Source of the DNA: Escherichia coli
Lineage (GTDB): Bacteria; Pseudomonadota; Gammaproteobacteria; Enterobacterales; Enterobacteriaceae
DNA length: 64,000 nucleotides
NCBI RefSeq assembly: GCF_050920415.1
Contig: NZ_CP169309.1
Reading direction: 5' to 3' (one strand)
A model generated the notes under the pieces. It had not been told where the DNA came from and made no database searches. It worked only from the letters and a program-made list of their open reading frames with translations. Both the position numbers and the translations under genes were made by a program. Of this stretch, positions 1 through 19,519 are shown in pieces. Position 1 is the stretch's first letter, and each line of letters begins with the position of its first letter.

Positions 1-1187
1 TCAATCGTAAACTGCCCATGCGGCATAGAGAGTGCATGCATACTGTCGGTGATCAGCTGTGCCAACTCATTTGCATAATGCTGGCGTTGCTGGTGTAACG
101 CGCGCGCCGTTTCCAGTGCCTGCTGATGATGTTTCGTTACCGCCAGCGCGAGCGTTTCTTGTGAGTCGGCCTGATTGTCCAGTTGCTGCTGCTCTTCCAG
201 TAGCGACTGGTAATACTGTGGCAATACCTCAGGGCTGACGTGATGTTTACGTGCCAGCGAAATCTGTTTTGAGATGCGCTGTTCAAGTTCAAACAGTCGG
301 TTGGGATCGAGATCCAGACGATCGCAGTAGTGGCGTAGTTCGTCGCTGGCTTCAACAATCTGGATGGTAGCTTCTTCCAGCATATCAAGTACGCCGGACA
401 GTTTGCTGTCCATGCCAATCAATTCGCTCACCAGTTGTTTAGCCGTGTAAAGCTGACTTTGCAGGTTTGCGTCTTCGCCGTCGGCCATTAATGCCAATGC
501 ATTCTGGCTGGTGGTCAGCAATTGACCGCTGTTCGCCAGACGTTTGTACTCTTCGTCGATTTGCTCAAACTCTCCGGGCTGCGGATTAAATTCGTTCAGT
601 TCTTTTAATTGGTATTGCAGCAGCTCCGCACGAGCGGCGCGTTCCTGACTTAACTGTTGATGATGCGCGAGGTCGCGGCAGCTTTGATGCCACAACTGAT
701 AACGTGCGGTCATTTCCTGAAGCAGAGAGGTTTCATTGGCATAGCCATCAAGCAGGAATTTTTGGTGCTCGGGTTTGGTGAGTAATTGATGGGCGTGCTG
801 ACCATGGATCTGAATGAGCAACTGGCCCAGTTCGCGCAGTTGTGACAGTGGAACAGCTGTACCGTTGATAAAACCACGAGAGCGACCATCGCTACTGATT
901 ACGCGACGAAGCAGGCATTCACGGCCATCTTCCAGTTGGTTTTCTTCCAGCCAGCGCAGTGCTGCGGGTGTATCTTTCAGAGAAAAACGGGCGCACAGAT
1001 CTGCGCGAGCAGCGCCGGTACGCACCATGTCGGCTTCAGCGCGACCGCCGAGACAAAGGCCCAGGGCATCTATTGCAATAGATTTACCCGCGCCAGTCTC
1101 GCCGGTGATTACGGTCATGCCGCTGTGAAAATCAATCTCAAGCTCACGAACGATAGCAAAGTTGCTGATGGTCAGTTGTGCCAACAT
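1..1187 (-). CDS. recN: DNA repair protein RecN, N-terminal ~395 codons; 3' end runs off the window
   Basis: Minus-strand ORF from ATG at 1185-1187 translating [36 protein letters not shown] (Walker A); not in ORF track because no stop in window; LexA boxes upstream. Confidence 0.9.
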
Positions 1188-1215
1188 AGTTGTTTTCCTG
1201 TATGAAAAACCATTA

Positions 1216-1253
1216 CTGTTATTGTGTACAGTATAAACTGGTTTTATATACAG
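1216..1253. promoter_or_regulatory. recN: Tandem LexA (SOS) operators in the recN promoter
   Basis: CTGT-N8-ACAG at 1216-1231 and CTGG-N8-ACAG at 1238-1253, 30-70 bp upstream of the recN ATG. Confidence 0.7.
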
Positions 1254-1272
1254 TAAAGAGGCTGGCGTAAAA

Positions 1273-2151
1273 TTAGAATAATTTTTTTGACCAGCCGAGC
1301 TTGGTGCTTAATGTATTGAAATAACTGTAATCTTTCGGATGAATCAGATTCAGATGGTAATCACAGCGACGAATCAGGACATCTTCTCCTTCCTGAATCG
1401 GCAGTGCTATCTGACTGTCGCAACTGATTTCCAGGTCGTTACGGCGATGTGAAAAACGCAGACGGATCGTGCTGCTGCTGTTTATGACCAGTGGTCGTGC
1501 TGACAACGTATGCGGGAACATGGGCACCAGGGTAATCGCATCCAGAGAAGGCGTCAGGATTGGACCGCCTGCCGAGAGAGAATAGGCAGTAGAGCCTGTA
1601 GGTGTCGAAATAATCAGGCCATCGGAACGCTGCGAAAACGCAAAGATCTCGTCGATATATACTTCGAATTCAATCATATGCGCCACTTTTCCTGGGTGAA
1701 GCACCACTTCATTTATCGCGGTGCTGATGCGCTTTTGGCAATCTTGCTGACAGACTTGCGCTTCCAGCAAAAAACGTTTCTCGCTGATGTAGTGACCTTC
1801 CAGCACATCGGCTAATTGTTGCTGAGCGTTATCGGGGTCAAGGTCGGTCAGGAAACCCAGGTTGCCACGGTTGATTCCAATAACTTTAATATCGTAACGG
1901 GCGAGTGTGCGCGCCGCGCCCAGCATATTACCGTCGCCACCAACGACTACCGCGAGATCAGCCAGTTGCCCAATCTCCGCGAGCGTGCCAGTTTTCACAT
2001 TCTTCAGTTGCAGTTCGTGAGCGATTTGTTGCTCAACGATGACCTCGTAACCTTTTGTGCACAGCCAGCGGTAGAGCATTTCATGTGTTGTCAGTGCAGT
2101 AGGGTGCCGTGGGTGTCCCACAATGCCAATACACTTGAAATGATTATTCAT
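1273..2151 (-). CDS. nadK: NAD kinase
   Basis: 292-aa [20 protein letters not shown]... with GGDG motif; conserved position between recN and grpE. Confidence 0.95.
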
Positions 2152-2197
2152 TTTTCCGAGGTCCTTGTTGCGAAGATTGATGACAATGTGAGTGCTT

Positions 2198-2228
2198 CCC
2201 TTGAAACCCTGAAACTGATCCCCATAAT
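2198..2228 (+). promoter_or_regulatory. grpE: sigma32 heat-shock promoter of grpE
   Basis: cccTTGAAA at 2198-2206, 13-bp spacer, CCCCATAAT at 2220-2228; matches sigma32 consensus CTTGAAA-N13-15-CCCCATnT. Confidence 0.6.
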
Positions 2229-2240
2229 AAGCGAAGTTAG

Positions 2241-2867
<627 letters not shown>

Positions 2868-2888
2868 TTTCTGCTTTCGTAATAAATC

Positions 2889-2920
2889 ACGGCCCAGCAT
2901 GCGAATGCCGGGCCGTTTTC
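2889..2920. terminator. Hairpin plus T-run between convergent grpE and yfjD, probable bidirectional terminator
   Basis: cggccc...gggccg stem 2891-2916 followed by tttt 2917-2920. Confidence 0.5.
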
Positions 2921-2921
2921 G

Positions 2922-4208
2922 TTACTCCGCCACACTCTCACGCAGCGGTTTCACAGGAAAAACTTTTACCTGCTTAATCATATTGTCCTGTACATCGAGA
3001 ATATCGATATCGTACTCGCCAATACGCACGCGAGTTCCTGCGACAGGAATCTCTTCCAGTGCCTCAAGAATGACGCCATTAACCGTTCGTGCATCATCTT
3101 CCGGTAGATGCCAGTTAAAGGCTTTGTTGATTTCCCGCACGTTGGCAGTGCCATCGATAATCACCGAACCGTCGTTTTGCGGCGTGACCTCTTCGGCGAG
3201 CGTTGGCGACATCGACGTGGTGAAATCACCAACAATCTCTTCGAGAATATCTTCGACCGTCACCAGACCCTGAATATCTCCATACTCGTTGACGACCAGG
3301 CCGACTTTCTTTTTGTTGCGCTGAAACTTCACCAGCTGCGTGCTGAGCGGCGTACCTTCCGGGACAAAATAGATTTCGTCCGCGGCGCGTAGCATGGTTT
3401 CTTTGGTGAACTCTTTTTTCTCCGACATCAACCGCCAGGCTTCACGCACACGCAGCATACTGATGGCGTCGTCCAGCGAGTCACGGTAGAGCACGATGCG
3501 TCCGTGAGGTGAGTGGGAGAGTTGGCGGAGAATCGATTTCCAGTCATCGTTGATATCAATACCGATAATTTCACTACGCGGCACCATGATGTCATCGACG
3601 GTCATCTTTTCCAGATCGAGTACCGACAGCAGCATATCCTGATTGCGACGGGAAATTTGTGAGCGCGATTCGTGCACGATAGTACGCAACTCTTCTTTGC
3701 TCAAAGAGCCGCTAACCACGATATCGGTTTTGATGCCCATCATGCGCATTAACATTCGGGTAATAGCATTCAGCAACCAGACCAGCGGCATCATCAAAAT
3801 TTGTAGCGGTGCCAGCAGAAAACTACTTGGATAGGCGACTTTTTCCGGGTACAGCGCGGCAATGGTTTTCGGCAATACTTCAGCAAAAACCAGTACGACA
3901 AAAGTTAGTACACCAGTCGCAATTGCCACGCCCGCATCCCCGTACAAACGCATCCCCACAATAGTACCGAGCGCGGAGGCAAGAATATTGACCAGGTTAT
4001 TGCCGATTAACACCAGGCTTATCAGGCGGTCTGGCTTACGCAGCAATTTTTCGACGCGTTTGGCCGAGCGATTACCCTGTTTCGCCATATGCCGCAGACG
4101 ATAGCGGTTGAGTGTCATCATTCCGGTTTCGGACCCGGAAAAATAGGCTGAAATGACCACCATGATGATCAGAATAATGATCAACGTAGTAGTAGAAATG
4201 TGTTCCAG
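2922..4208 (-). CDS. yfjD: CNNM/CorC-family inner membrane protein YfjD (DUF21-CBS-CorC_HlyC); CTG occupies the expected start codon position
   Basis: ORF track gives 2922-4184 (420 aa); frame stays open upstream to an SD aaggag followed 6 nt later by CTG at 4206-4208, giving 428 codons, the K-12 YfjD length as recalled. Confidence 0.85.
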   Translation of the reverse strand: MEHISTTTLIIILIIMVVISAYFSGSETGMMTLNRYRLRHMAKQGNRSAKRVEKLLRKPDRLISLVLIGNNLVNILASALGTIVGMRLYGDAGVAIATGVLTFVVLVFAEVLPKTIAALYPEKVAYPSSFLLAPLQILMMPLVWLLNAITRMLMRMMGIKTDIVVSGSLSKEELRTIVHESRSQISRRNQDMLLSVLDLEKMTVDDIMVPRSEIIGIDINDDWKSILRQLSHSPHGRIVLYRDSLDDAISMLRVREAWRLMSEKKEFTKETMLRAADEIYFVPEGTPLSTQLVKFQRNKKKVGLVVNEYGDIQGLVTVEDILEEIVGDFTTSMSPTLAEEVTPQNDGSVIIDGTANVREINKAFNWHLPEDDARTVNGVILEALEEIPVAGTRVRIGEYDIDILDVQDNMIKQVKVFPVKPLRESVAE

Positions 4209-4228
4209 GGGAAACTCCTTTTCTGGGT

Positions 4229-5095
4229 TTAGCTGATTAACTGCTGGACAATTCGGCTGCCGAAGTAGGCCAGTGTCAGAATGACTGCACCCGCAACGTT
4301 AAACCAGACGACGCGGCGTCCACGCCATCCTTCATGATAATGTCCCCACAGCAGCACAATATAGACAAACCACGCCACGATAGAGAGCACGGCCTTGTCG
4401 ATATTTTCCATGCTAAATAAGTTGTGCATGTAGAACAGGCCAGTGCAAAGAGTGAGCGTTAACAGCACCACGCCAATCTGCGTGATGTGGAACATTTTAC
4501 GCTCGATACTCATCAACGGCGGCATTTCCTGGTTAAACGCCAGCTTCTTGTTCTTCAGTTGGTAATCAATCCACGCCAGTTGTAATGCATACAGAGCGGC
4601 GATAATCAGCGTGGCATAGGAAAAGAGCGATAAGCCAATGTGCACCAGCATCCCAGGCGTTGCTTCCAGATGGGTGATGTATTCATTGGGCATAAAGGTT
4701 GCCAGCGCCAGGTTGATAAGCGCAAAGGCATAGACAATGGGTAGCAGTAACCAGCCACGATTGCGGGAAGCCACGATGGTCATTACCGTACAGATCATCA
4801 AACTGACCAGCGAACCAACGTTCAGTAAGCTGAGGTTTTGTCCGCTATCACCGTCGGGCAAGATGCGGGCTTCCAGAGCGATTGCGTGGCAGACCAGCGC
4901 GATGACCGCAGAAATAATAGCCATGCGCCGCCAGCCGCCGTTTTTTTGCAGCAGACCGGGAACAATCAGCGCAAGACTGACGGAGTAGGCGACAAGCGCG
5001 AGCAGAGCAAAAACGGGCATAGTAATGTCGACAGTTTGAGCAATAAGAAAGAGAAGCAGTATAGCGTCAGGTGAACGCTGCTCCAACCGTTGCAT
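4229..5095 (-). CDS. ypjD: Inner membrane protein YpjD (cytochrome c assembly-like family); true start probably the internal Met at 5020
   Basis: 288-aa ORF; polytopic hydrophobic protein ...MPVFALLALVAYSVSLALIVPGLLQKNGGWRRMAIISAVIALVCHAIALE... Confidence 0.85.
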   Translation of the reverse strand: MQRLEQRSPDAILLLFLIAQTVDITMPVFALLALVAYSVSLALIVPGLLQKNGGWRRMAIISAVIALVCHAIALEARILPDGDSGQNLSLLNVGSLVSLMICTVMTIVASRNRGWLLLPIVYAFALINLALATFMPNEYITHLEATPGMLVHIGLSLFSYATLIIAALYALQLAWIDYQLKNKKLAFNQEMPPLMSIERKMFHITQIGVVLLTLTLCTGLFYMHNLFSMENIDKAVLSIVAWFVYIVLLWGHYHEGWRGRRVVWFNVAGAVILTLAYFGSRIVQQLIS

Positions 5096-5186
5096 AACAA
5101 CAAAGACGCCTTCATGTTATACTGCGGCAAAATACTGATGATGTGTCGCGATTGCGGCCAACCGTTTCCACCCCAGGCGAGAGACA

Positions 5187-6548
5187 ATGTTTGATAATTT
5201 AACCGATCGTTTGTCGCGCACGCTGCGCAATATCAGTGGCCGTGGACGCCTCACTGAAGACAACGTAAAAGATACGCTGCGCGAAGTGCGCATGGCGCTG
5301 CTGGAGGCGGACGTCGCCCTGCCGGTAGTGCGTGAGTTTATCAATCGCGTAAAAGAGAAAGCGGTTGGTCATGAAGTTAATAAGAGCCTGACGCCGGGGC
5401 AGGAGTTCGTCAAAATCGTCCGTAACGAACTGGTTGCGGCGATGGGCGAAGAGAACCAGACCCTGAATCTGGCTGCGCAACCGCCAGCGGTGGTACTGAT
5501 GGCGGGCCTGCAAGGTGCCGGTAAAACAACCAGCGTGGGCAAGCTCGGTAAGTTCCTGCGTGAGAAGCACAAGAAAAAAGTGCTGGTGGTTTCTGCCGAC
5601 GTTTATCGTCCGGCGGCAATCAAACAGCTGGAGACGCTGGCAGAGCAGGTGGGTGTTGATTTCTTCCCTTCTGATGTTGGTCAGAAGCCGGTTGATATCG
5701 TTAACGCGGCGCTGAAAGAAGCCAAACTGAAATTCTACGACGTGTTGCTGGTGGATACCGCCGGTCGTTTGCACGTTGACGAAGCGATGATGGACGAGAT
5801 CAAGCAGGTCCATGCATCGATTAATCCGGTTGAAACTTTGTTCGTGGTTGACGCCATGACCGGTCAGGATGCGGCCAATACGGCAAAAGCATTCAATGAA
5901 GCGTTACCGCTGACCGGTGTGGTACTGACTAAAGTCGACGGCGATGCCCGTGGCGGTGCGGCGCTCTCTATTCGTCACATTACGGGCAAACCGATCAAGT
6001 TCCTCGGTGTTGGCGAGAAAACTGAGGCGCTGGAGCCGTTCCATCCGGACCGTATCGCTTCCCGTATTCTCGGCATGGGCGACGTACTGTCGCTGATCGA
6101 AGATATCGAAAGCAAAGTTGACCGCGCGCAGGCAGAGAAATTAGCCAGCAAGCTGAAAAAAGGTGACGGCTTCGATCTCAACGACTTCCTTGAGCAACTG
6201 CGCCAGATGAAAAATATGGGCGGCATGGCTAGCCTGATGGGCAAACTGCCGGGCATGGGGCAGATCCCGGATAACGTCAAGTCGCAGATGGACGATAAAG
6301 TGCTGGTGCGTATGGAAGCCATCATCAACTCGATGACGATGAAAGAGCGCGCTAAGCCAGAAATCATCAAAGGTTCGCGTAAACGCCGTATCGCTGCCGG
6401 TTGCGGTATGCAGGTGCAGGACGTTAACCGTCTTCTGAAACAGTTCGACGACATGCAGCGCATGATGAAGAAAATGAAGAAGGGCGGAATGGCGAAGATG
6501 ATGAGAAGCATGAAAGGGATGATGCCGCCGGGATTTCCTGGTCGCTAA
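5187..6548 (+). CDS. ffh: Signal recognition particle protein Ffh
   Basis: 453-aa ORF MFDNLTDRLSRTLRNISGRGRLTEDNVKDTLREVRMALLEADV..., GTPase motifs and Met-rich C-terminal M domain. Confidence 0.97.
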   Translation: MFDNLTDRLSRTLRNISGRGRLTEDNVKDTLREVRMALLEADVALPVVREFINRVKEKAVGHEVNKSLTPGQEFVKIVRNELVAAMGEENQTLNLAAQPPAVVLMAGLQGAGKTTSVGKLGKFLREKHKKKVLVVSADVYRPAAIKQLETLAEQVGVDFFPSDVGQKPVDIVNAALKEAKLKFYDVLLVDTAGRLHVDEAMMDEIKQVHASINPVETLFVVDAMTGQDAANTAKAFNEALPLTGVVLTKVDGDARGGAALSIRHITGKPIKFLGVGEKTEALEPFHPDRIASRILGMGDVLSLIEDIESKVDRAQAEKLASKLKKGDGFDLNDFLEQLRQMKNMGGMASLMGKLPGMGQIPDNVKSQMDDKVLVRMEAIINSMTMKERAKPEIIKGSRKRRIAAGCGMQVQDVNRLLKQFDDMQRMMKKMKKGGMAKMMRSMKGMMPPGFPGR

Positions 6549-6606
6549 ATGACCTTATGCGACAGAGTTATTAACTGCTGATTGCATTTTCTCCAGAAAT
6601 CAGTAA

Positions 6607-6933
<327 letters not shown>

Positions 6934-6951
6934 TCTGTCACGGTGGTCATG

Positions 6952-7500
6952 ATGAGCAAACAACTCACCGCGCAAGCACCTGTTGATCCCATCGTTTTGG
7001 GAAAAATGGGTTCGTCTTACGGTATTCGTGGGTGGCTCAGAGTGTTTTCTTCCACCGAAGACGCCGAAAGCATTTTTGACTATCAGCCCTGGTTTATCCA
7101 GAAGGCGGGTCAGTGGCAGCAAGTCCAGCTGGAAAGCTGGAAGCACCACAATCAGGACATGATCATCAAGCTGAAAGGCGTTGACGATCGTGATGCGGCG
7201 AACCTGCTGACGAATTGTGAAATTGTCGTGGATTCATCGCAGCTGCCTCAGCTTGAAGAGGGTGACTACTACTGGAAAGACCTGATGGGCTGCCAGGTAG
7301 TAACCACTGAAGGCTACGATCTCGGTAAAGTCGTCGATATGATGGAAACCGGATCTAATGACGTTCTCGTCATTAAGGCAAACCTGAAAGATGCGTTTGG
7401 TATCAAGGAACGACTTGTACCGTTCCTCGATGGGCAGGTTATCAAGAAAGTCGATCTCACTACTCGTTCAATCGAAGTAGATTGGGATCCTGGTTTTTAA
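6952..7500 (+). CDS. rimM: Ribosome maturation factor RimM
   Basis: [21 protein letters not shown]...; start placed at ATG 6952 to give 182 aa; ORF track begins at GTG 6943. Confidence 0.93.
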
Positions 7501-7530
7501 ACCACCGGATAAACGGTAAAAGACGGCGCT

Positions 7531-8298
7531 ATGTGGATTGGCATAATTAGCCTGTTTCCTGAAATGTTCCGCGCAATTACCGATTACGGGGTAACTGGCC
7601 GGGCAGTTAAAAATGGCCTGCTGAGCATCCAGAGCTGGAGTCCTCGTGACTTCACGCATGACCGGCACCGTACCGTGGACGATCGTCCTTACGGCGGCGG
7701 ACCGGGGATGTTAATGATGGTGCAACCTTTACGGGACGCCATTCATGCAGCAAAAGCCGCGGCGGGTGAAGGCGCAAAGGTGATTTATCTGTCACCGCAG
7801 GGGCGCAAGCTTGATCAAGCAGGCGTCAGCGAACTGGCAACGAATCAAAAATTGATTCTGGTGTGCGGTCGCTACGAAGGTATAGATGAGCGCGTGATCC
7901 AAACCGAAATTGACGAAGAATGGTCAATCGGCGATTACGTTCTCAGTGGTGGTGAGTTACCCGCAATGACGCTGATTGACTCCGTTTCCCGGTTTATTCC
8001 GGGAGTACTGGGACATGAAGCTTCGGCAACGGAAGACTCCTTTGCTGAAGGATTGCTGGATTGCCCGCACTATACGCGGCCTGAGGTGTTAGAAGGGATG
8101 GAAGTTCCGTCAGTGTTACTGTCGGGCAACCATGCCGAGATACGTCGCTGGCGTTTGAAACAGTCGCTGGGCCGTACCTGGCTTAGAAGACCTGAACTTC
8201 TGGAAAACCTGGCTCTGACTGAAGAGCAAGCAAGGTTGCTGGCGGAGTTCAAAACGGAACACGCACAACAGCAACATAAACATGATGGGATGGCGTAA
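7531..8298 (+). CDS. trmD: tRNA (guanine37-N1)-methyltransferase TrmD
   Basis: 255-aa [34 protein letters not shown]... Confidence 0.97.
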
Positions 8299-8336
8299 GC
8301 CCCCGAGATATCAGTTTACCCAGGATAAGAGATTAA

Positions 8337-8687
<351 letters not shown>

Positions 8688-8716
8688 GATTTCGCTTAAG
8701 CGACATCCTGTTAAGA

Positions 8717-8747
8717 AGGGCTGGCCAATTGGCTGGCCCTTTTTTTG
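8717..8747 (+). terminator. Rho-independent terminator of the rpsP-rimM-trmD-rplS operon
   Basis: Hairpin agggctggccaattggctggccct 8717-8740 followed by T6 8741-8746. Confidence 0.55.
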
Positions 8748-8763
8748 TCTGTTTGCTCGTGTT

Positions 8764-9246
8764 TTAAGGGGTTGTAATCACCACTGCGACGCGGCGGTTC
8801 TCGGCGCGACCCTGGGCGGTCTTGTTACTGGCTATGGGATATTTTTTTCCTAAACCCTGTGTGGTGAGATTTCTGCGCGGAATTTGTCCACCCATAGCCC
8901 ATGCATCGGCCACAACATTCGCCCGTTTCAATGATAAGGCTTCGTTGTAACTGTCTTCACCATAGTTGTCGGTGTGTCCATCCATACGGGCATGCGTTAG
9001 CCCTGTCGAGGCCAATTTGGCTGCCATGGTTTGGATCTGTTGCTGGCTTTCCGGGAGCAATTTGTAGTCATTTTTTGCGAACAGAATGGCATCTGATAAT
9101 CCCAGCGACCAGTCGCCGGCGGATTCAGTAAATCCATAAGATTGCATAGCGGCAACTTGCTCAGGAGTAAACTTTCCCTGAGGGGACTGGCAGCCAGTCA
9201 GTACTAGCGAGGTGAAAATCAGGGGTGCTACCAGGTGCTTTATCAT
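8764..9246 (-). CDS. yfiB: OmpA-family outer membrane lipoprotein YfiB
   Basis: 160-aa ORF with lipoprotein signal (LTGC) and OmpA-like C-terminal domain; last gene of yfiR-yfiN-yfiB. Confidence 0.9.
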   Translation of the reverse strand: MIKHLVAPLIFTSLVLTGCQSPQGKFTPEQVAAMQSYGFTESAGDWSLGLSDAILFAKNDYKLLPESQQQIQTMAAKLASTGLTHARMDGHTDNYGEDSYNEALSLKRANVVADAWAMGGQIPRRNLTTQGLGKKYPIASNKTAQGRAENRRVAVVITTP

Positions 9247-9261
9247 ATCGATATATCCTTG

Positions 9262-10488
9262 TTATCTCACCAGCTTTTCGGCACGCTGGTGTTTGGCCTG
9301 ATACATATTGTGATCGGCCAGCTCTTGTAATTTTTCCGCAGAGGCATGCTCAATGGTCATCGCGTAACCAATGCTTAATGTCATGGTGGTCTGATGACCA
9401 TTATGAAGATCAAACGGGCGATTAAAGATTTGTGTCAGTGCTGAGCAAATCCGCTGTACTTCGGATTCCGACTGTACACCAAAGAGGACCATCGCAAATT
9501 CATCGCCGCCTATGCGGTATGCTTTATGTTGCAGCCCGCCAAATTCAGCTAACCGTTTTGCTACCTCAATCAAGACACGATCGCCCGTCGCATGACCCCA
9601 GGTATCATTGATATATTTGAAATTATCGCCATCAAGAAATAGTAACGCCGACGTTTTTCGGGCGTCGGAACTGCTCATCAACGTGTTGATGCCGCTACGA
9701 AACGCAGCCCGGTTCGCCAGCCCGGTTAATGGGTCATGTAGCGCGGTACGTAGCAGCTGCGCATTTTTAGCCTGTAAGCGAAGCTGCCACTCTTCCATTT
9801 CATCCAGCAGACTGTTGAAGTCGAGAGCGAAGCGGTGAAACTCAGCGATACGTTCTTCCGAAACTCGTCGGGAAAAATTGCGGTTGGAACGCACATCATG
9901 TACGACATCGGTGATATTTTTCAGCGCTTCCACCAGGCCATTGTGCAAATGGCGGGTGAGGGTAATTGCGATGCCTGATGCCAGCAGAATACAACCGGTC
10001 AGGACAGCGAGCGAAAACCAGATAAAATGGCTGATCGAGCTGTCGCGAGCGGTTAAGCGTACTTCGCCAATGGTTTCACCATTGTGACGAATCGGCTGAG
10101 TGATGGGGGCAGGGAAGAGCCAGTGGCTTATGAAATTGCTGAAAGTATCGCCTGGATCCTTACGGGTGTAATGCCAGGATGCCAGAATATTTTGCTGCTT
10201 ATCACGCACTTCTGCAGTTGAAAATTGCCCTTGCTTCCCCAGCGCTGCCAGTGTTTGAGTTGCTGCAGGGCCATCGGCAAAAACGACCGCTGCTTCCAGA
10301 CTGTAAGTCATTGTTGCTGCTGTCAGTGCCAGGTTTTTTTGCGCGTACTGTTTCAGAGTCAGCACCGAGGTCACGGAAAGCAGCAACCAGATCAGCATCA
10401 TAGTGATAAATATGCTGGTCATACTGATGTTGCGTAATGCTCTTTTAAACGTGGGGCGCTTATTAAGAGAATTATCGTTATCCATCAT
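9262..10488 (-). CDS. dgcN: Inner membrane diguanylate cyclase DgcN (YfiN), HAMP-GGDEF
   Basis: 408-aa ORF with N-terminal TM segments and C-terminal GGDEF domain (RIGGDEF present). Confidence 0.9.
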
Positions 10489-10996
10489 TTTTCTTCCGTG
10501 CGAGCATTAAGACATCCGGGTTGACCTTTACACCGCTACGCGATAAGGCATCCAGGTTTACGGCAAATCTGACGTCATTATTGTGGATGATCAGACAAAA
10601 GGCGCTACCAATAATGCAATCGGTATTTTGTTCGGCAATTAATAATAACGCCTTTGACGGATATTGTTCGGTTAATTCCATCTGGAATGTCGGTGACTCC
10701 TTGCCAAAATAAAAACCATTGCAGCCTGAAATCATCGCCTCTTGTTGAGTGTGAATGATGACAGGCAAATAAGGCAAAGATGTCGCGGCATTCTCTTGTA
10801 GGGCGGTACTAAAACGTGAAGATGAAAAGATACATAACTTTGGTGGCCCTGATAGCACGGGCCAGCGGGTGTAACTGACAATACCGGAAACCATCATACG
10901 CACGTTTTTCGCAACGTCAGAAGGTTCCTGAGCGAGTATTGGTGCTCCCGTCAGCAGGAGAATCAGCAGTAAGAACAGTCGGTGAGAAAAACGCAT
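10478..10996 (-). CDS. yfiR: Periplasmic repressor of DgcN, YfiR
   Basis: 172-aa ORF with signal peptide [24 protein letters not shown]; overlaps dgcN start by 11 nt. Confidence 0.9.
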
Positions 10997-11145
10997 TCAG
11001 GGATCCTCACCATCTTCGCTCGAAATGCATCGATATTTTTTCAGAATGCTCATTAAAATATCATTCTTTCATGCGTTCGTCATCAATGTGAGAAATAAAA
11101 CACAATGAGTAGAATCTCATGTTTAATTTATTTGTGGGGGTTTAA

Positions 11146-11550
11146 TTAATTTAATCGTATTGTGCTGGCATTTTCATCAGCCCCTTTTTGCCATACTTCA
11201 TGCAGTTGGCTGGCATTTTCAACATTGTTGCAGCTGGCAGGAAAGATTTTACCGGAAAGTCCTCGGGCATAAGTAAAATCGGTCTGGCAAGTTTTCTTTT
11301 GTCCTTCGGCATATCCTTTAAGGTATAGACCGCGATCCGCCTGTGAATCGCTAAATGCATCGTCTTCTTTTATGGCGTTGCCCGATATCGCATCTTCCAT
11401 ACCAACATCATACCAGTCGGTGCTGGTCAAGGTTGGCGCGTGAGTATAAGGATCAATCTGACATCCGCTAACCAGTAAAGCCAACAAGGGGGCGATAAAC
11501 TTTTTCATCATTTCTTTCTCCTTTTTCAAAGCATAGCGGATTGTTTTCAA
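11146..11550 (-). CDS. yfiL: Lipoprotein YfiL (DUF2799); start may be an internal Met near 11511
   Basis: 134-aa ORF with lipobox LLVSGC. Confidence 0.8.
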   Translation of the reverse strand: MKTIRYALKKEKEMMKKFIAPLLALLVSGCQIDPYTHAPTLTSTDWYDVGMEDAISGNAIKEDDAFSDSQADRGLYLKGYAEGQKKTCQTDFTYARGLSGKIFPASCNNVENASQLHEVWQKGADENASTIRLN

Positions 11551-11556
11551 AGGCGA

Positions 11557-11626
11557 TGTAAATTTATTTATACATAAACAAGGGTTAAAAGCGCGAATAA
11601 ATTGCTTGTGTAAAGAAAAATGTACG
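11557..11626. promoter_or_regulatory. aroF: TyrR boxes in the aroF promoter
   Basis: TGTAAA-N6-TATACA at 11557-11574 and TGTAAA-N6-TGTACG at 11609-11626, upstream of the aroF ATG at 11721. Confidence 0.55.
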
Positions 11627-11720
11627 AAATATGGATTGAAAACTTTACTTTATGTGTTATCGTTACGTCATCCTCGCTGAGGATCAACTATCGCAAACGA
11701 GCATAAACAGGATCGCCATC

Positions 11721-12791
11721 ATGCAAAAAGACGCGCTGAATAACGTACATATTACCGACGAACAAGTTTTAATGACTCCGGAACAACTGAAGGCCGCTTT
11801 TCCATTAAGCCTGCAACAGGAAGCCCAGATTGCTGACTCGCGTAAAACCATTTCAGATATTATCGCCGGGCGCGATCCTCGTCTGTTGGTAGTATGTGGT
11901 CCTTGTTCCATTCATGATCCGGAAACTGCTCTGGAATATGCTCGTCGATTTAAAGCCCTTGCCGCAGAGGTCAGCGATAGCCTCTATCTGGTAATGCGCG
12001 TCTATTTTGAAAAACCCCGTACCACTGTCGGTTGGAAAGGGTTGATTAACGATCCCCATATGGATGGCTCTTTTGATGTAGAAGCCGGGCTGCAGATCGC
12101 GCGTAAATTGCTGCTTGAGCTGGTGAATATGGGACTGCCACTGGCGACGGAAGCGTTAGATCCTAATAGCCCGCAATACCTGGGCGATCTGTTTAGCTGG
12201 TCAGCAATTGGTGCTCGTACAACGGAATCGCAAACACACCGTGAAATGGCCTCCGGGCTTTCCATGCCGGTTGGTTTTAAAAACGGCACCGACGGCAGCC
12301 TTGCAACGGCTATTAACGCTATGCGTGCCGCCGCCCAGCCGCACCGTTTTGTTGGCATTAACCAGGCAGGGCAGGTTGCGTTGCTACAAACTCAGGGGAA
12401 TCCGGACGGGCATGTGATCCTGCGCGGTGGTAAAGCGCCGAACTATAGCCCTGCGGATGTTGCGCAATGTGAAAAAGAGATGGAACAGGCGGGACTGCGC
12501 CCGTCTCTGATGGTAGATTGCAGCCACGGTAATTCCAATAAAGATTATCGCCGTCAGCCTGCGGTGGCAGAATCCGTGGTTGCTCAAATCAAAGATGGCA
12601 ATCGCTCAATTATTGGTCTGATGATCGAAAGTAATATCCACGAGGGCAATCAGTCTTCCGAGCAACCGCGCAGTGAAATGAAATACGGTGTATCCGTAAC
12701 CGATGCCTGCATTAGTTGGGAAATGACCGATGCCTTGCTGCGTGAAATTCATCAGGATCTGAACGGGCAGCTGACGGCTCGCGTGGCTTAA
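11721..12791 (+). CDS. aroF: DAHP synthase, Tyr-sensitive (AroF)
   Basis: [30 protein letters not shown]...; ORF track begins 69 nt upstream. Confidence 0.95.
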
Positions 12792-12801
12792 GAGGTTTAT
12801 T

Positions 12802-13923
12802 ATGGTTGCTGAATTGACCGCATTACGCGATCAAATTGATGAAGTCGATAAAGCGCTGCTGAATTTATTAGCGAAGCGTCTGGAACTGGTTGCTGAAGTT
12901 GGCGAGGTGAAAAGCCGCTTTGGACTGCCTATTTATGTTCCGGAGCGCGAGGCATCTATGCTGGCCTCGCGGCGTGCAGAGGCGGAAGCTCTGGGTGTAC
13001 CGCCAGATCTGATTGAGGATGTTTTGCGTCGGGTGATGCGTGAATCTTACTCCAGTGAAAACGACAAAGGATTTAAAACGCTTTGTCCGTCTCTGCGTCC
13101 GGTGGTTATCGTCGGTGGTGGCGGTCAGATGGGACGTCTGTTCGAGAAGATGCTGGCACTCTCGGGTTATCAGGTGCGGATTCTGGAGCAACATGACTGG
13201 GATCGAGCGGCTGATATTGTTGCCGATGCCGGAATGGTGATTGTTAGTGTGCCCATCCACGTTACTGAACAAGTTATTGGCAAATTACCGCCTTTACCGA
13301 AAGATTGTATTCTGGTCGATCTGGCATCGGTGAAAAATGGACCATTACAGGCCATGCTGGCGGCGCATGATGGTCCGGTGCTGGGGTTACACCCGATGTT
13401 CGGCCCGGACAGCGGTAGCCTGGCAAAGCAAGTTGTGGTCTGGTGTGATGGACGTAAGCCGGAAGCATACCAATGGTTTCTGGAGCAAATTCAGGTCTGG
13501 GGCGCTCGGCTGCATCGTATTAGCGCTGTCGAGCACGATCAGAATATGGCGTTTATTCAGGCACTGCGCCACTTTGCTACTTTTGCTTATGGGCTGCACC
13601 TGGCAGAAGAAAATGTTCAGCTTGAGCAACTTCTGGCGCTTTCTTCGCCGATTTACCGCCTTGAGCTGGCGATGGTTGGGCGACTGTTTGCTCAGGATCC
13701 GCAACTGTATGCCGACATTATTATGTCGTCAGAGCGTAATCTGGCGTTAATCAAACGTTACTATAAGCGTTTCGGCGAGGCGATTGAGTTGCTGGAGCAG
13801 GGCGATAAGCAGGCGTTTATTGACAGTTTCCGCAAGGTGGAGCACTGGTTCGGCGATTACGCACAGCGTTTTCAGAGTGAAAGCCGCGTGTTATTGCGTC
13901 AGGCGAATGACAGTCGCCAGTAA
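12802..13923 (+). CDS. tyrA: T-protein: chorismate mutase / prephenate dehydrogenase (TyrA)
   Basis: 373-aa [44 protein letters not shown]... Confidence 0.97.
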
Positions 13924-13965
13924 TAATCCAGTGCCGGGTGGCGTGTTTCACCCGGCACGATTTCA

Positions 13966-15126
13966 TTATGCCGGATCGACTGGTACCACATTCTCGCTTG
14001 GGTAACAGCCCAGGACTTTCATCGAGCGAGTGATTTCACCTAGCTCTTTCAACGCCTGTTGCATTTCCGCTGATTCCAGATTGGCCTGAATATCCAGATA
14101 AAACATCTCTTCCCACGGGTTTCCGTGAATCGGGCGTGATTCCAGACGGGTCATAATCAGATTGTGGTTGCGCAGTACCAGCAACGCTTCAACCAGCGCA
14201 CCAGCTTGTTGTCCGGTCGCCATTAACAACGTCGTTTTCGCCGGAACCTGGTCAGAAACGTTAATGGCTTTACGTGCCAACACCACAAATCGGGTGAAGT
14301 TTTGTCGCTGATTCGCTTCAATATGCTCCAGTACCTGCAAACCGTACAAAGTGCCGCCAGCTTCGCTTCCCAACGCAGCAACATGCGGTGATTTTGCCTG
14401 TGCAACCTTTTCCATTGCCGCAGACGTACTTTCGGTATATTCAATCTTCCAGTGCGGATAACGATTAAGGAATTTGCTGCATTGCTGGAATGGCTGCGGA
14501 TGGCTGTAGACCGTATTAATGGTGGATAAATCAGTAGTGCCGGAGACCAACAAACAATGATCGATAGTTAACGTCATCTCGCCAACAATCGACAAACTGG
14601 TATGTTGCAGCAGATCGTAAACGTCGTTTATGGCACCGGAGCTGGTATTTTCAATCGGTACGACGGCATAGTCGGCCTGGCCGGTTTCCACCTGATTAAA
14701 AATATCGGCAAATTTGGCGCAGCCACTTTCAATGAATTGCTCAAAGTGACGCGCAGCGTACTGACGAGCGGCAAGATGTGAATAGGAGCCTTTGGGGCCG
14801 AGAAAAGCGATGCGTGCTGAGTGCGGATTAATTTTATTGAGATGTTGCTGGAGCAGTGCCTGCTGAGTTAATACGGAATCTTCAATGATGAGCTGGAACA
14901 GGCGAGTAATGTAATGGGCGTCCAGATGGTGCGCTTTACCGAGCGTAATTAATCTTTCCAGCAAATCGCGTTCGCGATCAATATCACGTACCGGGCGATG
15001 AGAGAGCAGTTTGGCTTTTCCCACCTCGACGGCCAGTTCGCGCCGCTCTGCCAGTAATGCTAATAATTTTTCATCCAGCGCGCTGATTTTCTCTCGCAGC
15101 GCCAGTAACGGGTTTTCCGATGTCAT
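13966..15126 (-). CDS. pheA: P-protein: chorismate mutase / prephenate dehydratase (PheA)
   Basis: 386-aa [42 protein letters not shown]... Confidence 0.97.
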
Positions 15127-15148
15127 AGTGTTGCCTTTTTGTTATCAA

Positions 15149-15178
15149 TAAAAAAGGCCCCCCGGTTTGGGAGGCCTT
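15149..15178 (-). terminator. pheA attenuator terminator
   Basis: Minus-strand RNA aaggccucccaaaccggggggccuu followed by U-run, between pheL stop and pheA start. Confidence 0.8.
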
Positions 15179-15224
15179 ATTGTTCGTCTTCGCATTCTGT
15201 TTCACACGACGAAACGCCTCCCAT

Positions 15225-15272
15225 TCAGGGGAAGGTAAAAAAGAATGCGAAGAAAAACGGTGTGTGTTTCAT
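15225..15272 (-). CDS. pheL: pheA leader peptide (15 aa, 7 Phe codons)
   Basis: atgaaacacacaccgtttttcttcgcattcttttttaccttcccctga = [15 protein letters not shown]; too short for the ORF track. Confidence 0.9.
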   Translation of the reverse strand: [15 protein letters not shown]

Positions 15273-15375
15273 GTTTGTTTCCTTAAGTGACTTTAGTACA
15301 GTACCCGTACTGTTTTCACGCTGTCAACAAAAAACGCGCCCGAAGGCGCGTTGGCGATACACTCAATATAAAGGA

Positions 15376-15771
<396 letters not shown>

Positions 15772-15908: not shown

Positions 15909-16688
15909 CTAAATCGCTTCAGTTACACAACTAACAGAATAAAAAAACGGTAGCTCAAGGCTGTAATGCCAGTCAGTTAAGCAACTGACTGGCTCTTTTT
16001 TGGGGCTGTGGGGTATTTCCAGGGCCTCTCCTTTACCACTCTCGGGAAGGCCCTTTCCCTTCTTGTCGGTAATTTCACAAGTTGTCCCATACTTGCAAGA
16101 TCGCGCATCAGCTCCGGTATACGTCCCGGTGAAGCGCATGGCGTCCGTCATCGACGTCAGCAGATGGCTGGTCAGTTCCATCTGGCAGACCATTTTGACC
16201 TGCGGGTAGAGCGCCGGGGTCCCGGTATGTGTCTGGCGAGGGAAGGCTGCATCGTTCTCTGGTGTATCCGGTGTGCGCCAGAACACACCATCGATGGCCA
16301 GCAGGGTCAGGCCGCACCAGTGCGGATGCGGCGTGGCGTTATGCCAGAGCTGCGCTGTTTTCGTGAACACGCGGCGGACAGCCTCACTTCCCAGGCGCTG
16401 GCGGGCCTGAATAACGGCACTGGGGGCAACGAAGGGGCGATTGCCCGGCAGCATGATGTCCAGGCGATTCACAATCTGGTGAAGAGGTTCTTTACGCTCA
16501 AGCGCCATGCCAACAATACACCAGACCATCATTTCGAGGGGAAGACGGCGCTTGCGTAGCGTTACAGTACCTGATTCGGCAAGGCAACGAGAGATGAGTT
16601 CGGGGTCGAGGTAATCCCCCAGAGAAGTCAGTGGGTTACGCAGAGAATCGTAACGGGATACCAAATCAAGGGCCTGTCCAATGAGCAT
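15909..16688 (-). pseudogene. Truncated IS4-family transposase; N-terminal ~175 aa conserved, catalytic region lost or out of frame
   Basis: ORF MLIGQALDLVSRYDSLRNPLTSLGDYLDPELISRCLAESGTVTLRKRRLPLEMMVWCIVGMALERKEPLHQIVNRLDIMLPG... recognised as IS4 transposase N-terminus; ORF reads out through the element end. Confidence 0.75.
15952..15963. repeat. Target-site duplication, left copy
   Basis: agctcaaggctg immediately outside the IS end; identical copy at 16775-16786. Confidence 0.7.
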
Positions 16689-16809: not shown

Positions 16810-17547
16810 TTATGTATTGCTGCTGTTTGCGGCGATGATTTTCGCTACTTTTTCAGCTTGCGCATTCATCTGCATCTGACGGTATGCATTTTCCATCAGC
16901 GGCAGCGCATCACGCGTAGCCTGGGTATCCGGATAGTCGCGCAACATGTCTTCTACGCGGTTAACGACAGCAACCCATGCACCACGTTCTGTATAGTACT
17001 CGGCAACGGAGTATTCATATTTCGCCAGACGATCTTTCAGGAATACCAGACGTTTGGTGGCATCGGTGGTGTACTGACTGTTCGGATAGCCGCGCACCAG
17101 TTTGGAAAAGTCACTAAACGCAGCTCGTGCATGTTGAGGATCGCGATCGCTACGGTCAACGCCAAAGAACCCTTGCAGCGCACTGTCATCCAGCGCCATA
17201 TTGGTCAGGCCACGCATGTACATGACATAATCGATATTCGGATGGGTCGGGTTAAGGCGAATAAAACGATCGATGGCAGCCTGTGCTAACGGCAAATCGG
17301 CGTTTTTATAGTAGGCGTAGATGAGATCCAGCTGCACCTGCTGCGAATACGGACCAAACGGATAGCGATTATCTAACGCTTCCAGTTGCGTTATTGCCTG
17401 TCTCCAGTTACCGTCCTGCAGCTTTTGTTGTGCAGTCGCGTAAATTTCATTTGGCGGATTATCAGGTACTTCTTCCTTTGACCCCGAGCAACCCGCCAAA
17501 AACAGGCTTAGTGTGGCGGCTGCCACCAGATATTTCATGCGCGTCAT
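16810..17547 (-). CDS. bamD: Outer membrane protein assembly factor BamD (YfiO), TPR lipoprotein
   Basis: 245-aa [54 protein letters not shown]... Confidence 0.95.
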
Positions 17548-19390: not shown

Positions 19391-19452
19391 CCTAAAGAAT
19401 CAAGACGATCCGGTACGCGTGATTTTCTTTTCACATTAATCTGGTCAATAAC

Positions 19453-19480
19453 CTTGAATAATTGAGGGATGACCTCATTT
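19453..19480 (+). promoter_or_regulatory. clpB: sigma32 heat-shock promoter of clpB
   Basis: CTTGAA 19453-19458, 14-bp spacer, CCTCATTT 19473-19480. Confidence 0.6.
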
Positions 19481-19519
19481 AATCTCCAGTAGCAACTTTG
19501 ATCCGTTATGGGAGGAGTT

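Follow-up and report, generated by a model that had tools for sequence, protein, structure and literature searches.

Three adjacent and co-oriented genes, yfiR, dgcN (also yfiN) and yfiB, lie on the minus strand of the window, by which we mean the whole 64,000-nucleotide stretch of Escherichia coli DNA under analysis (Table 1). Their order matches the annotation of K-12 and of further E. coli genomes, and the outer ends of the three ORFs coincide exactly with the interval 8764-10996, in which an earlier note on this DNA, giving no strand, had placed an intact c-di-GMP signalling operon. The spacing between dgcN and yfiB is 15 nt, and the coding regions of yfiR and dgcN, which that note had described as overlapping, share 11 nt; the overlap suggests that translation of these two genes may be coupled, and the three genes are probably expressed as one transcript. 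The neighbourhood is syntenic with K-12 (rimM-trmD-rplS, followed by yfiB-dgcN-yfiR, yfiL and aroF-tyrA), and YfiR, DgcN and YfiB alike exceed the cut-offs of their NCBIfam equivalog models.

Table 1. Features of the yfiR-dgcN-yfiB locus and its flanks, in window positions.
Feature	Extent	Position	Strand	Basis
yfiL-yfiR intergenic region	149 nt	10997-11145	minus	sequence reading
yfiR	172 aa	10478-10996	minus	ORF list
YfiR signal peptide	residues 1-22	10931-10996	minus	single N-terminal hydrophobic segment, residues 3-25
Overlap of yfiR stop and dgcN start, ATGATGGATAA	11 nt	10478-10488	minus	sequence; K-12 annotation likewise
dgcN/yfiN	408 aa	9262-10488	minus	ORF list
DgcN periplasmic CHASE8 (PAS-like) sensor domain	residues 45-146	10051-10356	minus	Pfam
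DgcN HAMP-equivalent linker	residues 181-232	9793-9948	minus	gapless alignment to P. aeruginosa YfiN
DgcN GGDEF catalytic domain	residues 249-403	9280-9744	minus	Pfam
GGDEF motif	residues 327-331	9496-9510	minus	motif reading
Degenerate I-site tetrad GLQH		9526-9537	minus	five residues upstream of GGDEF
yfiB	160 aa	8764-9246	minus	ORF list
YfiB lipobox LTGC (Cys19), Gln at +2	residues 16-19	9190-9201	minus	
YfiB OmpA-like peptidoglycan-binding domain	residues 55-151	8794-9084	minus	
Hairpin between convergent rplS and yfiB		8713-8744	both	terminator scan and RNA folds

At the protein level, the product of yfiR is the predicted periplasmic repressor of DgcN: it matches Pfam DUF4154 (YfiR/HmsC-like; 2.2e-30), passes the NCBIfam model sequest_YfiR (NF053586; 167 bits against a cut-off of 85) and is identical to WP_001212403.1. 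Its cysteines C55, C92, C127 and C134 align with C71, C110, C145 and C152 of the Pseudomonas aeruginosa protein. The product of yfiB is a predicted outer-membrane OmpA-like lipoprotein (Pfam OmpA, 1.3e-17; NCBIfam OMP_LP_YfiB, NF053585, 232 bits against a cut-off of 128; PRK09967, 346 bits; identical to WP_000589843.1), in which C19, D93 and G96 align with P. aeruginosa C26, D102 and G105. Among solved structures, those nearest to the three proteins are all from P. aeruginosa, namely YfiR 4yn7 and 4zhu (E of about 3e-16), TpbB 7a7e for DgcN (6.7e-29) and YfiB 4zhv (1.2e-31). The OmpA-like domain of YfiB also weakly matches the PADLOC ZorB/MotB models (about 4e-10), which might suggest that the locus is some other GGDEF module or a defence-type system rather than a YfiBNR orthologue. 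However, these matches are confined to the generic peptidoglycan-binding domain, and the same scan returned no match for YfiR or DgcN. The defence-system reading is refuted by equivalog scores far above the cut-offs, by the exact synteny with K-12 and by a nucleotide identity of 96-99% to the K-12 genes (96.4% for dgcN), so that a non-orthologous system at this locus is scarcely credible.

The product of dgcN is a predicted inner-membrane diguanylate cyclase, identical to WP_000969055.1, with Pfam matches to CHASE8 (3.3e-33) and GGDEF (2.3e-42), a score of 503 bits against the DgcN/YfiN equivalog NF007423 (cut-off 325) and, on either side of CHASE8, a hydrophobic stretch that is a predicted transmembrane helix (residues 20-46 and 150-179). 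CHASE8 is the proposed YfiR-binding domain. Specifically, Y62/A66/A67/V68/F70 form the proposed YfiR-binding patch of P. aeruginosa YfiN (PMC3375315), and DgcN keeps all five of these residues. The earlier description of the protein as a HAMP-GGDEF cyclase was thus right about the GGDEF domain but omitted the periplasmic CHASE8, and named a HAMP region that is too divergent for Pfam to recognise: the Pfam HAMP model (PF00672) gave no match in the window DgcN at E<=10, nor in K-12 DgcN at E<=1, whereas residues 181-232 of P. aeruginosa YfiN score 38 bits. DgcN aligns there without gaps, and it is solely through this alignment that we infer a HAMP in the E. coli protein. DgcN residues 169-243 give weak NCBIfam matches to the TM2-proximal part of sensor kinases. 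By eye, the AS2-like segment of the linker resembles the HAMP consensus; the AS1 proline is absent.

In the catalytic domain, D286, N294, D303, R325, G327-F331 and K399 are invariant across the window, K-12 and P. aeruginosa. No RxxD I-site was found five residues upstream of the GGDEF motif of DgcN, where the tetrad reads GLQH; the K-12 protein likewise lacks an I-site and has GLRH at this place (PMC10127611). The sole RxxD in DgcN is RPFD (residues 357-360), downstream of GGDEF.

The corresponding genes of K-12, which we take to be b2603-b2605, share with the window the gene set and order, the protein lengths, the 11-nt overlap, the neighbours rplS and yfiL/aroF, the unchanged GGDEF active site and the equal absence of an I-site. 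Compared gene by gene with K-12 BW25113, the locus is colinear: each gene has the length of its counterpart, and neither a gap nor an internal stop interrupts it. The RefSeq-annotated YfiR, DgcN and YfiB of two complete E. coli genomes, N96 and MFDS1022581, are identical proteins, and the sole nucleotide difference from these genomes, at window position 10357, is synonymous. The dgcN of Shigella flexneri (S2841), at the same locus, shares more than 97.9% identity with that of K-12 but has a premature stop at codon 120 (PMC11327459), whereas the gene of the window reads through at full length. IS insertions occur at the locus in occasional E. coli strains. The ORF list, Pfam, the NCBIfam equivalogs and the K-12 comparison therefore agree with the earlier note that all three components are full length and undisrupted, with the GGDEF motif in place and no truncation. 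The locus is almost certainly the intact chromosomal yfiR-dgcN(yfiN)-yfiB operon of E. coli, orthologous to that of K-12; it is an ordinary, already annotated and known operon, and no evidence contradicts this.

The same tripartite architecture and gene order are found in YfiBNR of P. aeruginosa (YfiR, YfiN=TpbB and YfiB; presumably PA1119-PA1121), as read on a P. aeruginosa-like contig. Yersinia HmsCDE and Pseudomonas fluorescens AwsXRO are homologous modules built on the same logic, in which a membrane GGDEF cyclase is accompanied by a periplasmic repressor and an OmpA-like lipoprotein; belonging to other genera, they are family-level relatives only. The P. aeruginosa proteins are about 30-40% identical to those of E. 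coli, and conservation includes the four YfiR cysteines, the binding-patch residues, the YfiB lipobox Cys, the peptidoglycan-binding Asp and Gly, and F48 and W55. A homology search with a P. aeruginosa TpbB GGDEF fragment returned fragments only and no full-length YfiN. The N-terminal 250 residues of P. aeruginosa YfiN were rebuilt from a frameshifted contig (L006), with residue 117 ambiguous, and the resulting numbering agrees with all 18 published mutant positions; YfiN aligns without gaps to DgcN over residues 12 to about 267, at 39% identity. The two also differ in that E. coli DgcN naturally has N204, and D204N activates P. aeruginosa YfiN (PMC3375315); and DgcN of E. coli and Salmonella relocates to the division site, which P. 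aeruginosa YfiN does not do (PMC4992967).

Relative to K-12, the three genes carry 65 nucleotide and 19 amino-acid differences. The latter, given from K-12 to the window, are (i) A47V, N99K and E126D in YfiR, (ii) E78Q, Q85K, I130T, N272S, N273S, I309V, R320Q, L326I, Y336F, D337G, Q346R and L357R in DgcN and (iii) V10I, I15V, G103A and S125R in YfiB. Most of the 19 changes are conservative, and Q346R introduces the Arg that stands at the aligned P. aeruginosa position. Values of dN/dS against K-12 range from 0.12 to 0.23 over the three genes (0.13 for dgcN), which indicates purifying selection on all three ORFs.

Intact reading frames could still hide a silent inactivation by a lesion of the promoter or ribosome-binding site. 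The presumed yfiR promoter and 5′ UTR lie within the yfiL-yfiR intergenic region, where a simple scan of the 149 nt found no minus-strand sigma-70 site with at least 9 of 12 matches, and seven positions differ from K-12. Against such a lesion, window positions 10990-11150 align with K-12 end to end: of the 161 aligned positions 154 are identical, and the intergenic region is free of gaps. The Shine-Dalgarno sequence, GGTGAGGA, 7 nt ahead of the ATG, differs by one base from its K-12 counterpart (GGTGGGGA) and is if anything nearer the consensus. A candidate extended -10 (TGaTATTTT) may be read by eye upstream of yfiR; K-12 is identical there, and the missing sigma-70 consensus is therefore a property of the species and not of this strain. 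Together with the purifying selection on all three ORFs, this makes a regulatory lesion very improbable. At the other end of the operon, the hairpin between rplS and yfiB forms, on the plus strand, a stem of 14 pairs with a T-run after it (-28.3 kcal/mol, z -4.1); on the minus strand it has an internal loop and a poor T-run (-15.9 kcal/mol). It is thus a putative strong intrinsic terminator for rplS and probably a weaker one on the yfiB strand.

Across the species, the locus is carried by 5425 of 5426 complete E. coli genomes, in one chromosomal copy each, and the exact YfiR, DgcN and YfiB proteins occur on 126, 137 and 98 public contigs, respectively. The dgcN allele as a whole is rare (5 of the 5426 complete genomes at an identity of at least 99%), and it is a mosaic of blocks that are found in other strains too: the C-terminal block is common to E. 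coli 042, and sub-blocks are common to P0049 and P0051. A locus-specific import from another species was considered as a reason for the low identity to most genomes. This was rejected as unnecessary, because the flanking genes are equally divergent at synonymous sites (dS of 0.18-0.20 for ffh, yfjD and pheA, and 0.12 for dgcN) and the dgcN blocks are common to other E. coli. Given the sharing of blocks and the low dN/dS of dgcN, the probable source of its variation is standing polymorphism, neutral or nearly so.

The question of whether this allele is functionally ordinary arises from the position of its substitutions. The GGDEF domain holds nine of the 12 in DgcN, where L326I directly precedes the motif, Y336F/D337G follow shortly after it and R320Q lies inside the degenerate I-site tetrad; N272S/N273S lie near a secondary I-site engineered in K-12. 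The 'N280' given for this site (PMC10127611) could not be placed on DgcN, as residue 280 of the K-12 protein is Ser by translation and the nearest Asn are 272, 273 and 289. Taken with the rarity of the whole-gene allele, these changes could mean that the operon is intact but functionally shifted, with DgcN hyper- or hypo-active or repression by YfiR altered by the 19 substitutions. The functional and activating positions described in PMC3375315 and PMC4887326 argue against this. None of the 19 substitutions coincides with (i) the GGDEF active site or the 18 activating positions of P. aeruginosa YfiN, (ii) the YfiB activating cluster (35-55), lipobox or peptidoglycan-binding residues, or (iii) the four YfiR cysteines and the YfiR binding surface. 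The P. aeruginosa YfiN screen yielded no activating change within the GGDEF domain (PMC3375315), and the mostly conservative nature of the changes, the Arg shared at position 346, the recurrence of the blocks in other strains and the low dN/dS of dgcN weigh on the same side. YfiN, YfiR and YfiB are unmentioned in PMC10459773 and PMC5635171, which deal with naturally occurring variants of c-di-GMP proteins in E. coli. A functional shift of the operon is thus unlikely, and we likewise consider it doubtful that the rare DgcN allele would alter cyclase output or run-away GTP depletion relative to K-12. The view that, of all modules in the window, this is the likeliest to vary in function from strain to strain finds no support for this allele; the alignments to K-12 and to the Pseudomonas activating positions that the earlier note had recommended place none of the differences on such positions. 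We infer that the rare allele of the window would behave like the K-12 allele.

How the intact operon may work can be drawn from published studies of K-12, Salmonella and P. aeruginosa (PMC4992967, PMC10127611, PMC3375315, PMC4887326). DgcN would be an inner-membrane cyclase in which a periplasmic CHASE8/PAS-like domain is joined by a divergent HAMP linker to a cytoplasmic GGDEF domain, and which is held inactive by bound periplasmic YfiR. The activity of YfiR would depend on disulfide bonds, and reducing conditions would therefore inactivate it; under envelope stress, outer-membrane YfiB anchored to peptidoglycan could sequester it. By either route, DgcN would be released to make c-di-GMP, whose rise would lower motility and increase biofilm matrix. 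Cell division may be blocked as well, by active E. coli DgcN that has relocated to the division site. Because it lacks a feedback I-site, DgcN may also exhaust GTP and halt growth when the carbon source is gluconeogenic.

Beyond correct annotation, the significance of finding the operon here is slight. Envelope and redox stress are linked through it to c-di-GMP, antibiotic tolerance and the arrest of cell division, a connection that is well studied, and virtually all E. coli carry the operon. Were the allele functionally shifted after all, the c-di-GMP set-point would differ in this lineage, and a minority of E. coli would have a heritably different set-point for biofilm, motility or antibiotic tolerance. 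Its intactness is a useful baseline because of the nonsense mutation in Shigella flexneri dgcN and the occasional IS insertions in E. coli, and the comparison provides, as a by-product, a catalogue of 19 natural substitutions in a rare mosaic allele, all of which avoid the known functional positions.

The locus in the window is the chromosomal yfiR-dgcN-yfiB operon of E. coli, the known c-di-GMP signalling system itself rather than a mere relative. The outer limits that an earlier note had drawn for it coincide exactly with those of three ORFs (see the table), which match the Pfam families DUF4154 ('YfiR/HmsC-like', 2.2e-30) for YfiR, CHASE8 (3.3e-33) and GGDEF (2.3e-42) for DgcN, and OmpA (1.3e-17) for YfiB. 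Specifically, the NCBIfam equivalog models sequest_YfiR (167 bits, cut-off 85), DgcN/YfiN (503 bits, cut-off 325) and OMP_LP_YfiB (232 bits, cut-off 128) are passed by wide margins, far beyond what chance can give. The coding overlap of yfiR and dgcN claimed earlier is real and measures 11 nt (ATGATGGATAA), and the dgcN-yfiB spacer is 15 nt; because of this overlap and short spacer, the genes are probably co-transcribed and translationally coupled. A plausible Shine-Dalgarno sequence precedes each start codon (GGTGAGGA for yfiR, GGAAG for dgcN and AAGGA for yfiB). Read on the rplS strand, the hairpin beyond yfiB is a strong terminator, folding at -28.3 kcal/mol ahead of a T-run; on the yfiB strand it is weaker (-15.9 kcal/mol) and has an internal loop. 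As in K-12 (BW25113), rpsP-rimM-trmD-rplS converge on yfiB, and yfiL and then aroF-tyrA lie upstream of yfiR; every gene from yfjD through bamD is colinear with K-12 and, compared with it, shows no gaps or internal stops. The operon is thus full length and undisrupted, as first reported, and its GGDEF motif is in place.

Coordinates of the operon, its protein features and neighbouring elements (window positions; residues of the encoded protein)
Feature	Position	Strand	Length or residues	Remarks
yfiR ORF	10478-10996	minus	172 aa	versus K-12: A47V, N99K, E126D
dgcN ORF	9262-10488	minus	408 aa	versus K-12: E78Q, Q85K, I130T, N272S, N273S, I309V, R320Q, L326I, Y336F, D337G, Q346R, L357R
DgcN CHASE8			45-146	Pfam; between hydrophobic segments
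DgcN GGDEF domain			249-403	Pfam
DgcN GGDEF motif			327-331	
dgcN stretch, codons 78 and 85	10200-10290		91 nt	
DgcN residue 204	9875-9877	minus	204	
dgcN stretch, codons 257-286	9630-9720		91 nt	
DgcN residues 272 and 273	9670-9675	minus	272-273	
DgcN RPFD tetrad	9409-9420	minus	357-360	LPFD in K-12
yfiB ORF	8764-9246	minus	160 aa	versus K-12: V10I, I15V, G103A, S125R
Hairpin	8713-8744			terminator between convergent rplS and yfiB
yfiL, longest ORF	11146-11550	minus	134 aa	from TTG 11550
Phe leader	15148-15273	minus		upstream of pheA
raiA	15376-15717			
ORF in raiA-bamD insertion	15909-16688	minus	259 aa	
bamD	16810-17547			
RyfD sRNA	19401-19539	plus		shortly upstream of clpB

DgcN has two hydrophobic segments (residues 20-46 and 150-179). 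Residues D286, N294, D303, R325 and K399, which we take by analogy with PleD to be catalytic or substrate-binding, are invariant among the window, K-12 and P. aeruginosa. Of the 'HAMP-GGDEF cyclase' described in the earlier note, the GGDEF part stands, whereas Pfam detects no HAMP domain in either the window or the K-12 protein; residues 181-232 align without gaps to a P. aeruginosa segment that scores as HAMP (38 bits), and are for that reason termed here a divergent HAMP-equivalent linker. Five residues upstream of the GGDEF motif stands the tetrad GLQH (GLRH in K-12), and the feedback I-site is therefore missing, as it is from K-12 DgcN (PMC10127611). L357R creates an RxxD-like tetrad 26 residues downstream of the motif, which is probably meaningless because it lies off the canonical I-site position. 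A secondary I-site has been restored through mutation of 'N280' (Hwang & Harshey 2023; PMC10127611). By translation, residue 280 of K-12 DgcN is Ser, the nearest Asn residues being 272, 273 and 289; both 272 and 273 are Ser in the window.

The OmpA-like domain of YfiB aligns its peptidoglycan-binding D93 and G96 with D102 and G105 of P. aeruginosa. Its lipobox (LTGC, Cys19) is followed by Gln at +2, and since lipoproteins with a non-Asp residue there usually go to the outer membrane, such sorting is implied. YfiR begins with a hydrophobic signal segment of 22 residues, then QE, and its four cysteines (55, 92, 127 and 134) align with the two P. aeruginosa disulfide pairs, C71-C110 and C145-C152 (PMC4887326).

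The operon differs from K-12 at 65 nucleotides and 19 amino acids, and the alignment to K-12 and to the Pseudomonas activating positions proposed earlier places none of the 19 at a listed position. For this comparison, full-length P. aeruginosa YfiN was rebuilt from a frameshifted P. aeruginosa-like contig (L006; GCA_029382755.1), used solely for the N-terminal YfiN sequence; the resulting numbering agrees with every one of the 18 positions that Malone et al. 2012 list (Table 1; PMC3375315), and DgcN aligns to it gaplessly, in the same numbering, from residue 12 to about 267. In that contig (3408-5200) several frameshifts break yfiN and yfiB, which may have arisen in assembly or may be inactivating 'scars' of the kind reported from clinical isolates. 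No window substitution falls at the YfiN activating positions (33, 40, 51, 58, 59, 62, 66, 67, 68, 70, 87, 162, 171, 173, 204, 226, 228 and 232), in the YfiB activating cluster (P. aeruginosa 35-55, about 26-46 in E. coli), at the YfiB lipobox or peptidoglycan-binding residues, at the YfiR cysteines, or on the YfiR C-terminal binding surface (P. aeruginosa F151, L166, I169, R171, V176, P178 and L181). The closest is Q85K, two residues from the equivalent of P. aeruginosa E87 in a poorly conserved loop. Residue 204 is naturally Asn in E. coli, K-12 and window alike, whereas in P. aeruginosa YfiN D204N is activating and partly YfiR-insensitive (PMC3375315); this difference is species-level, not strain-specific. 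Nei-Gojobori dN/dS versus K-12 (yfiR 0.23, dgcN 0.13, yfiB 0.12; 0 to 0.02 for ffh, yfjD and pheA) indicates purifying selection on the operon genes, if laxer than on those three. There is a slim chance that the GGDEF-domain substitutions shift function quantitatively.

An intact operon is the norm in E. coli. Megablast of window 8600-11200 against 5426 complete genomes found the locus in 5425, chromosomal every time and annotated with these gene names. In 5413 of the 5426, at least 80% of dgcN is covered in one piece; exceptions to intactness include the IS1-disrupted locus of SW07163 and, in Shigella flexneri, a dgcN nonsense mutation at codon 120 (PMC11327459). The window proteins are identical to WP_001212403.1 (YfiR), WP_000969055.1 (DgcN) and WP_000589843.1 (YfiB); public contigs with the exact sequence number 126, 137 and 98 in that order. 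All three proteins are annotated in strain N96, from a Tibetan pig, and in MFDS1022581, isolated from food in Korea, and across 8600-11200 these genomes differ from the window by a single synonymous nucleotide (10357).

As a whole gene the dgcN allele is rare (no more than 5 of the 5426 complete genomes reach 99% identity), yet it is a mosaic of blocks found elsewhere. A 93-nt stretch spanning codons 320-346 recurs unchanged in 33 genomes, one of them E. coli 042, whose dgcN joins a K-12-like N-terminal half to the C-terminal block of the window; the stretch with codons 78 and 85 is exact in 30, and the cluster members P0049 and P0051 hold sub-blocks. Locally, codons 257-286 are the most lineage-specific part, being exact in 5 of the 5426 genomes and only 90-95% identical in 5294. 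With dS versus K-12 at 0.18-0.20 in flanking housekeeping genes and 0.12 in dgcN, the flanks are as diverged at synonymous sites; lineage history and recombination thus account for the divergence, and the locus is not special.

Several observations concern the neighbourhood. RefSeq starts yfiL at 11511 (121 aa), and of the four nucleotides that set this gene apart from K-12, three are nonsynonymous changes (dN/dS about 0.8, from very few sites). Rfam gathering-score matches comprise the Phe leader (132 bits) and RyfD (125 bits). Across about 1-15350, MFDS1022581 hardly differs from the window; its P2-like prophage (L005 16784-27001, with integrase and replication endonuclease) adjoins pheL and is absent from the window (compared from about 15350 onward). 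Between raiA and bamD, an insertion of about 820 bp absent from K-12 carries an ORF that matches Pfam Nterm_IS4 (1.9e-33), the N-terminal domain of IS4-family transposases; N96 and R32_14_1F annotate it as a frameshifted IS4 transposase, and it is therefore an IS remnant.

The window holds every sequence feature required by the published mechanism steps. According to the literature, YfiR binds the periplasmic domain of DgcN and so represses it, reductive stress inactivates YfiR, and YfiR is sequestered by YfiB, which has its anchor in the outer membrane and binds peptidoglycan (PMC3375315, PMC4887326). Under envelope stress in E. coli, active, c-di-GMP-loaded DgcN moves to the Z ring and stops division (PMC4992967), and, because I-sites are absent, DgcN can deplete GTP, leading to arrested growth when the carbon source is gluconeogenic (PMC10127611).
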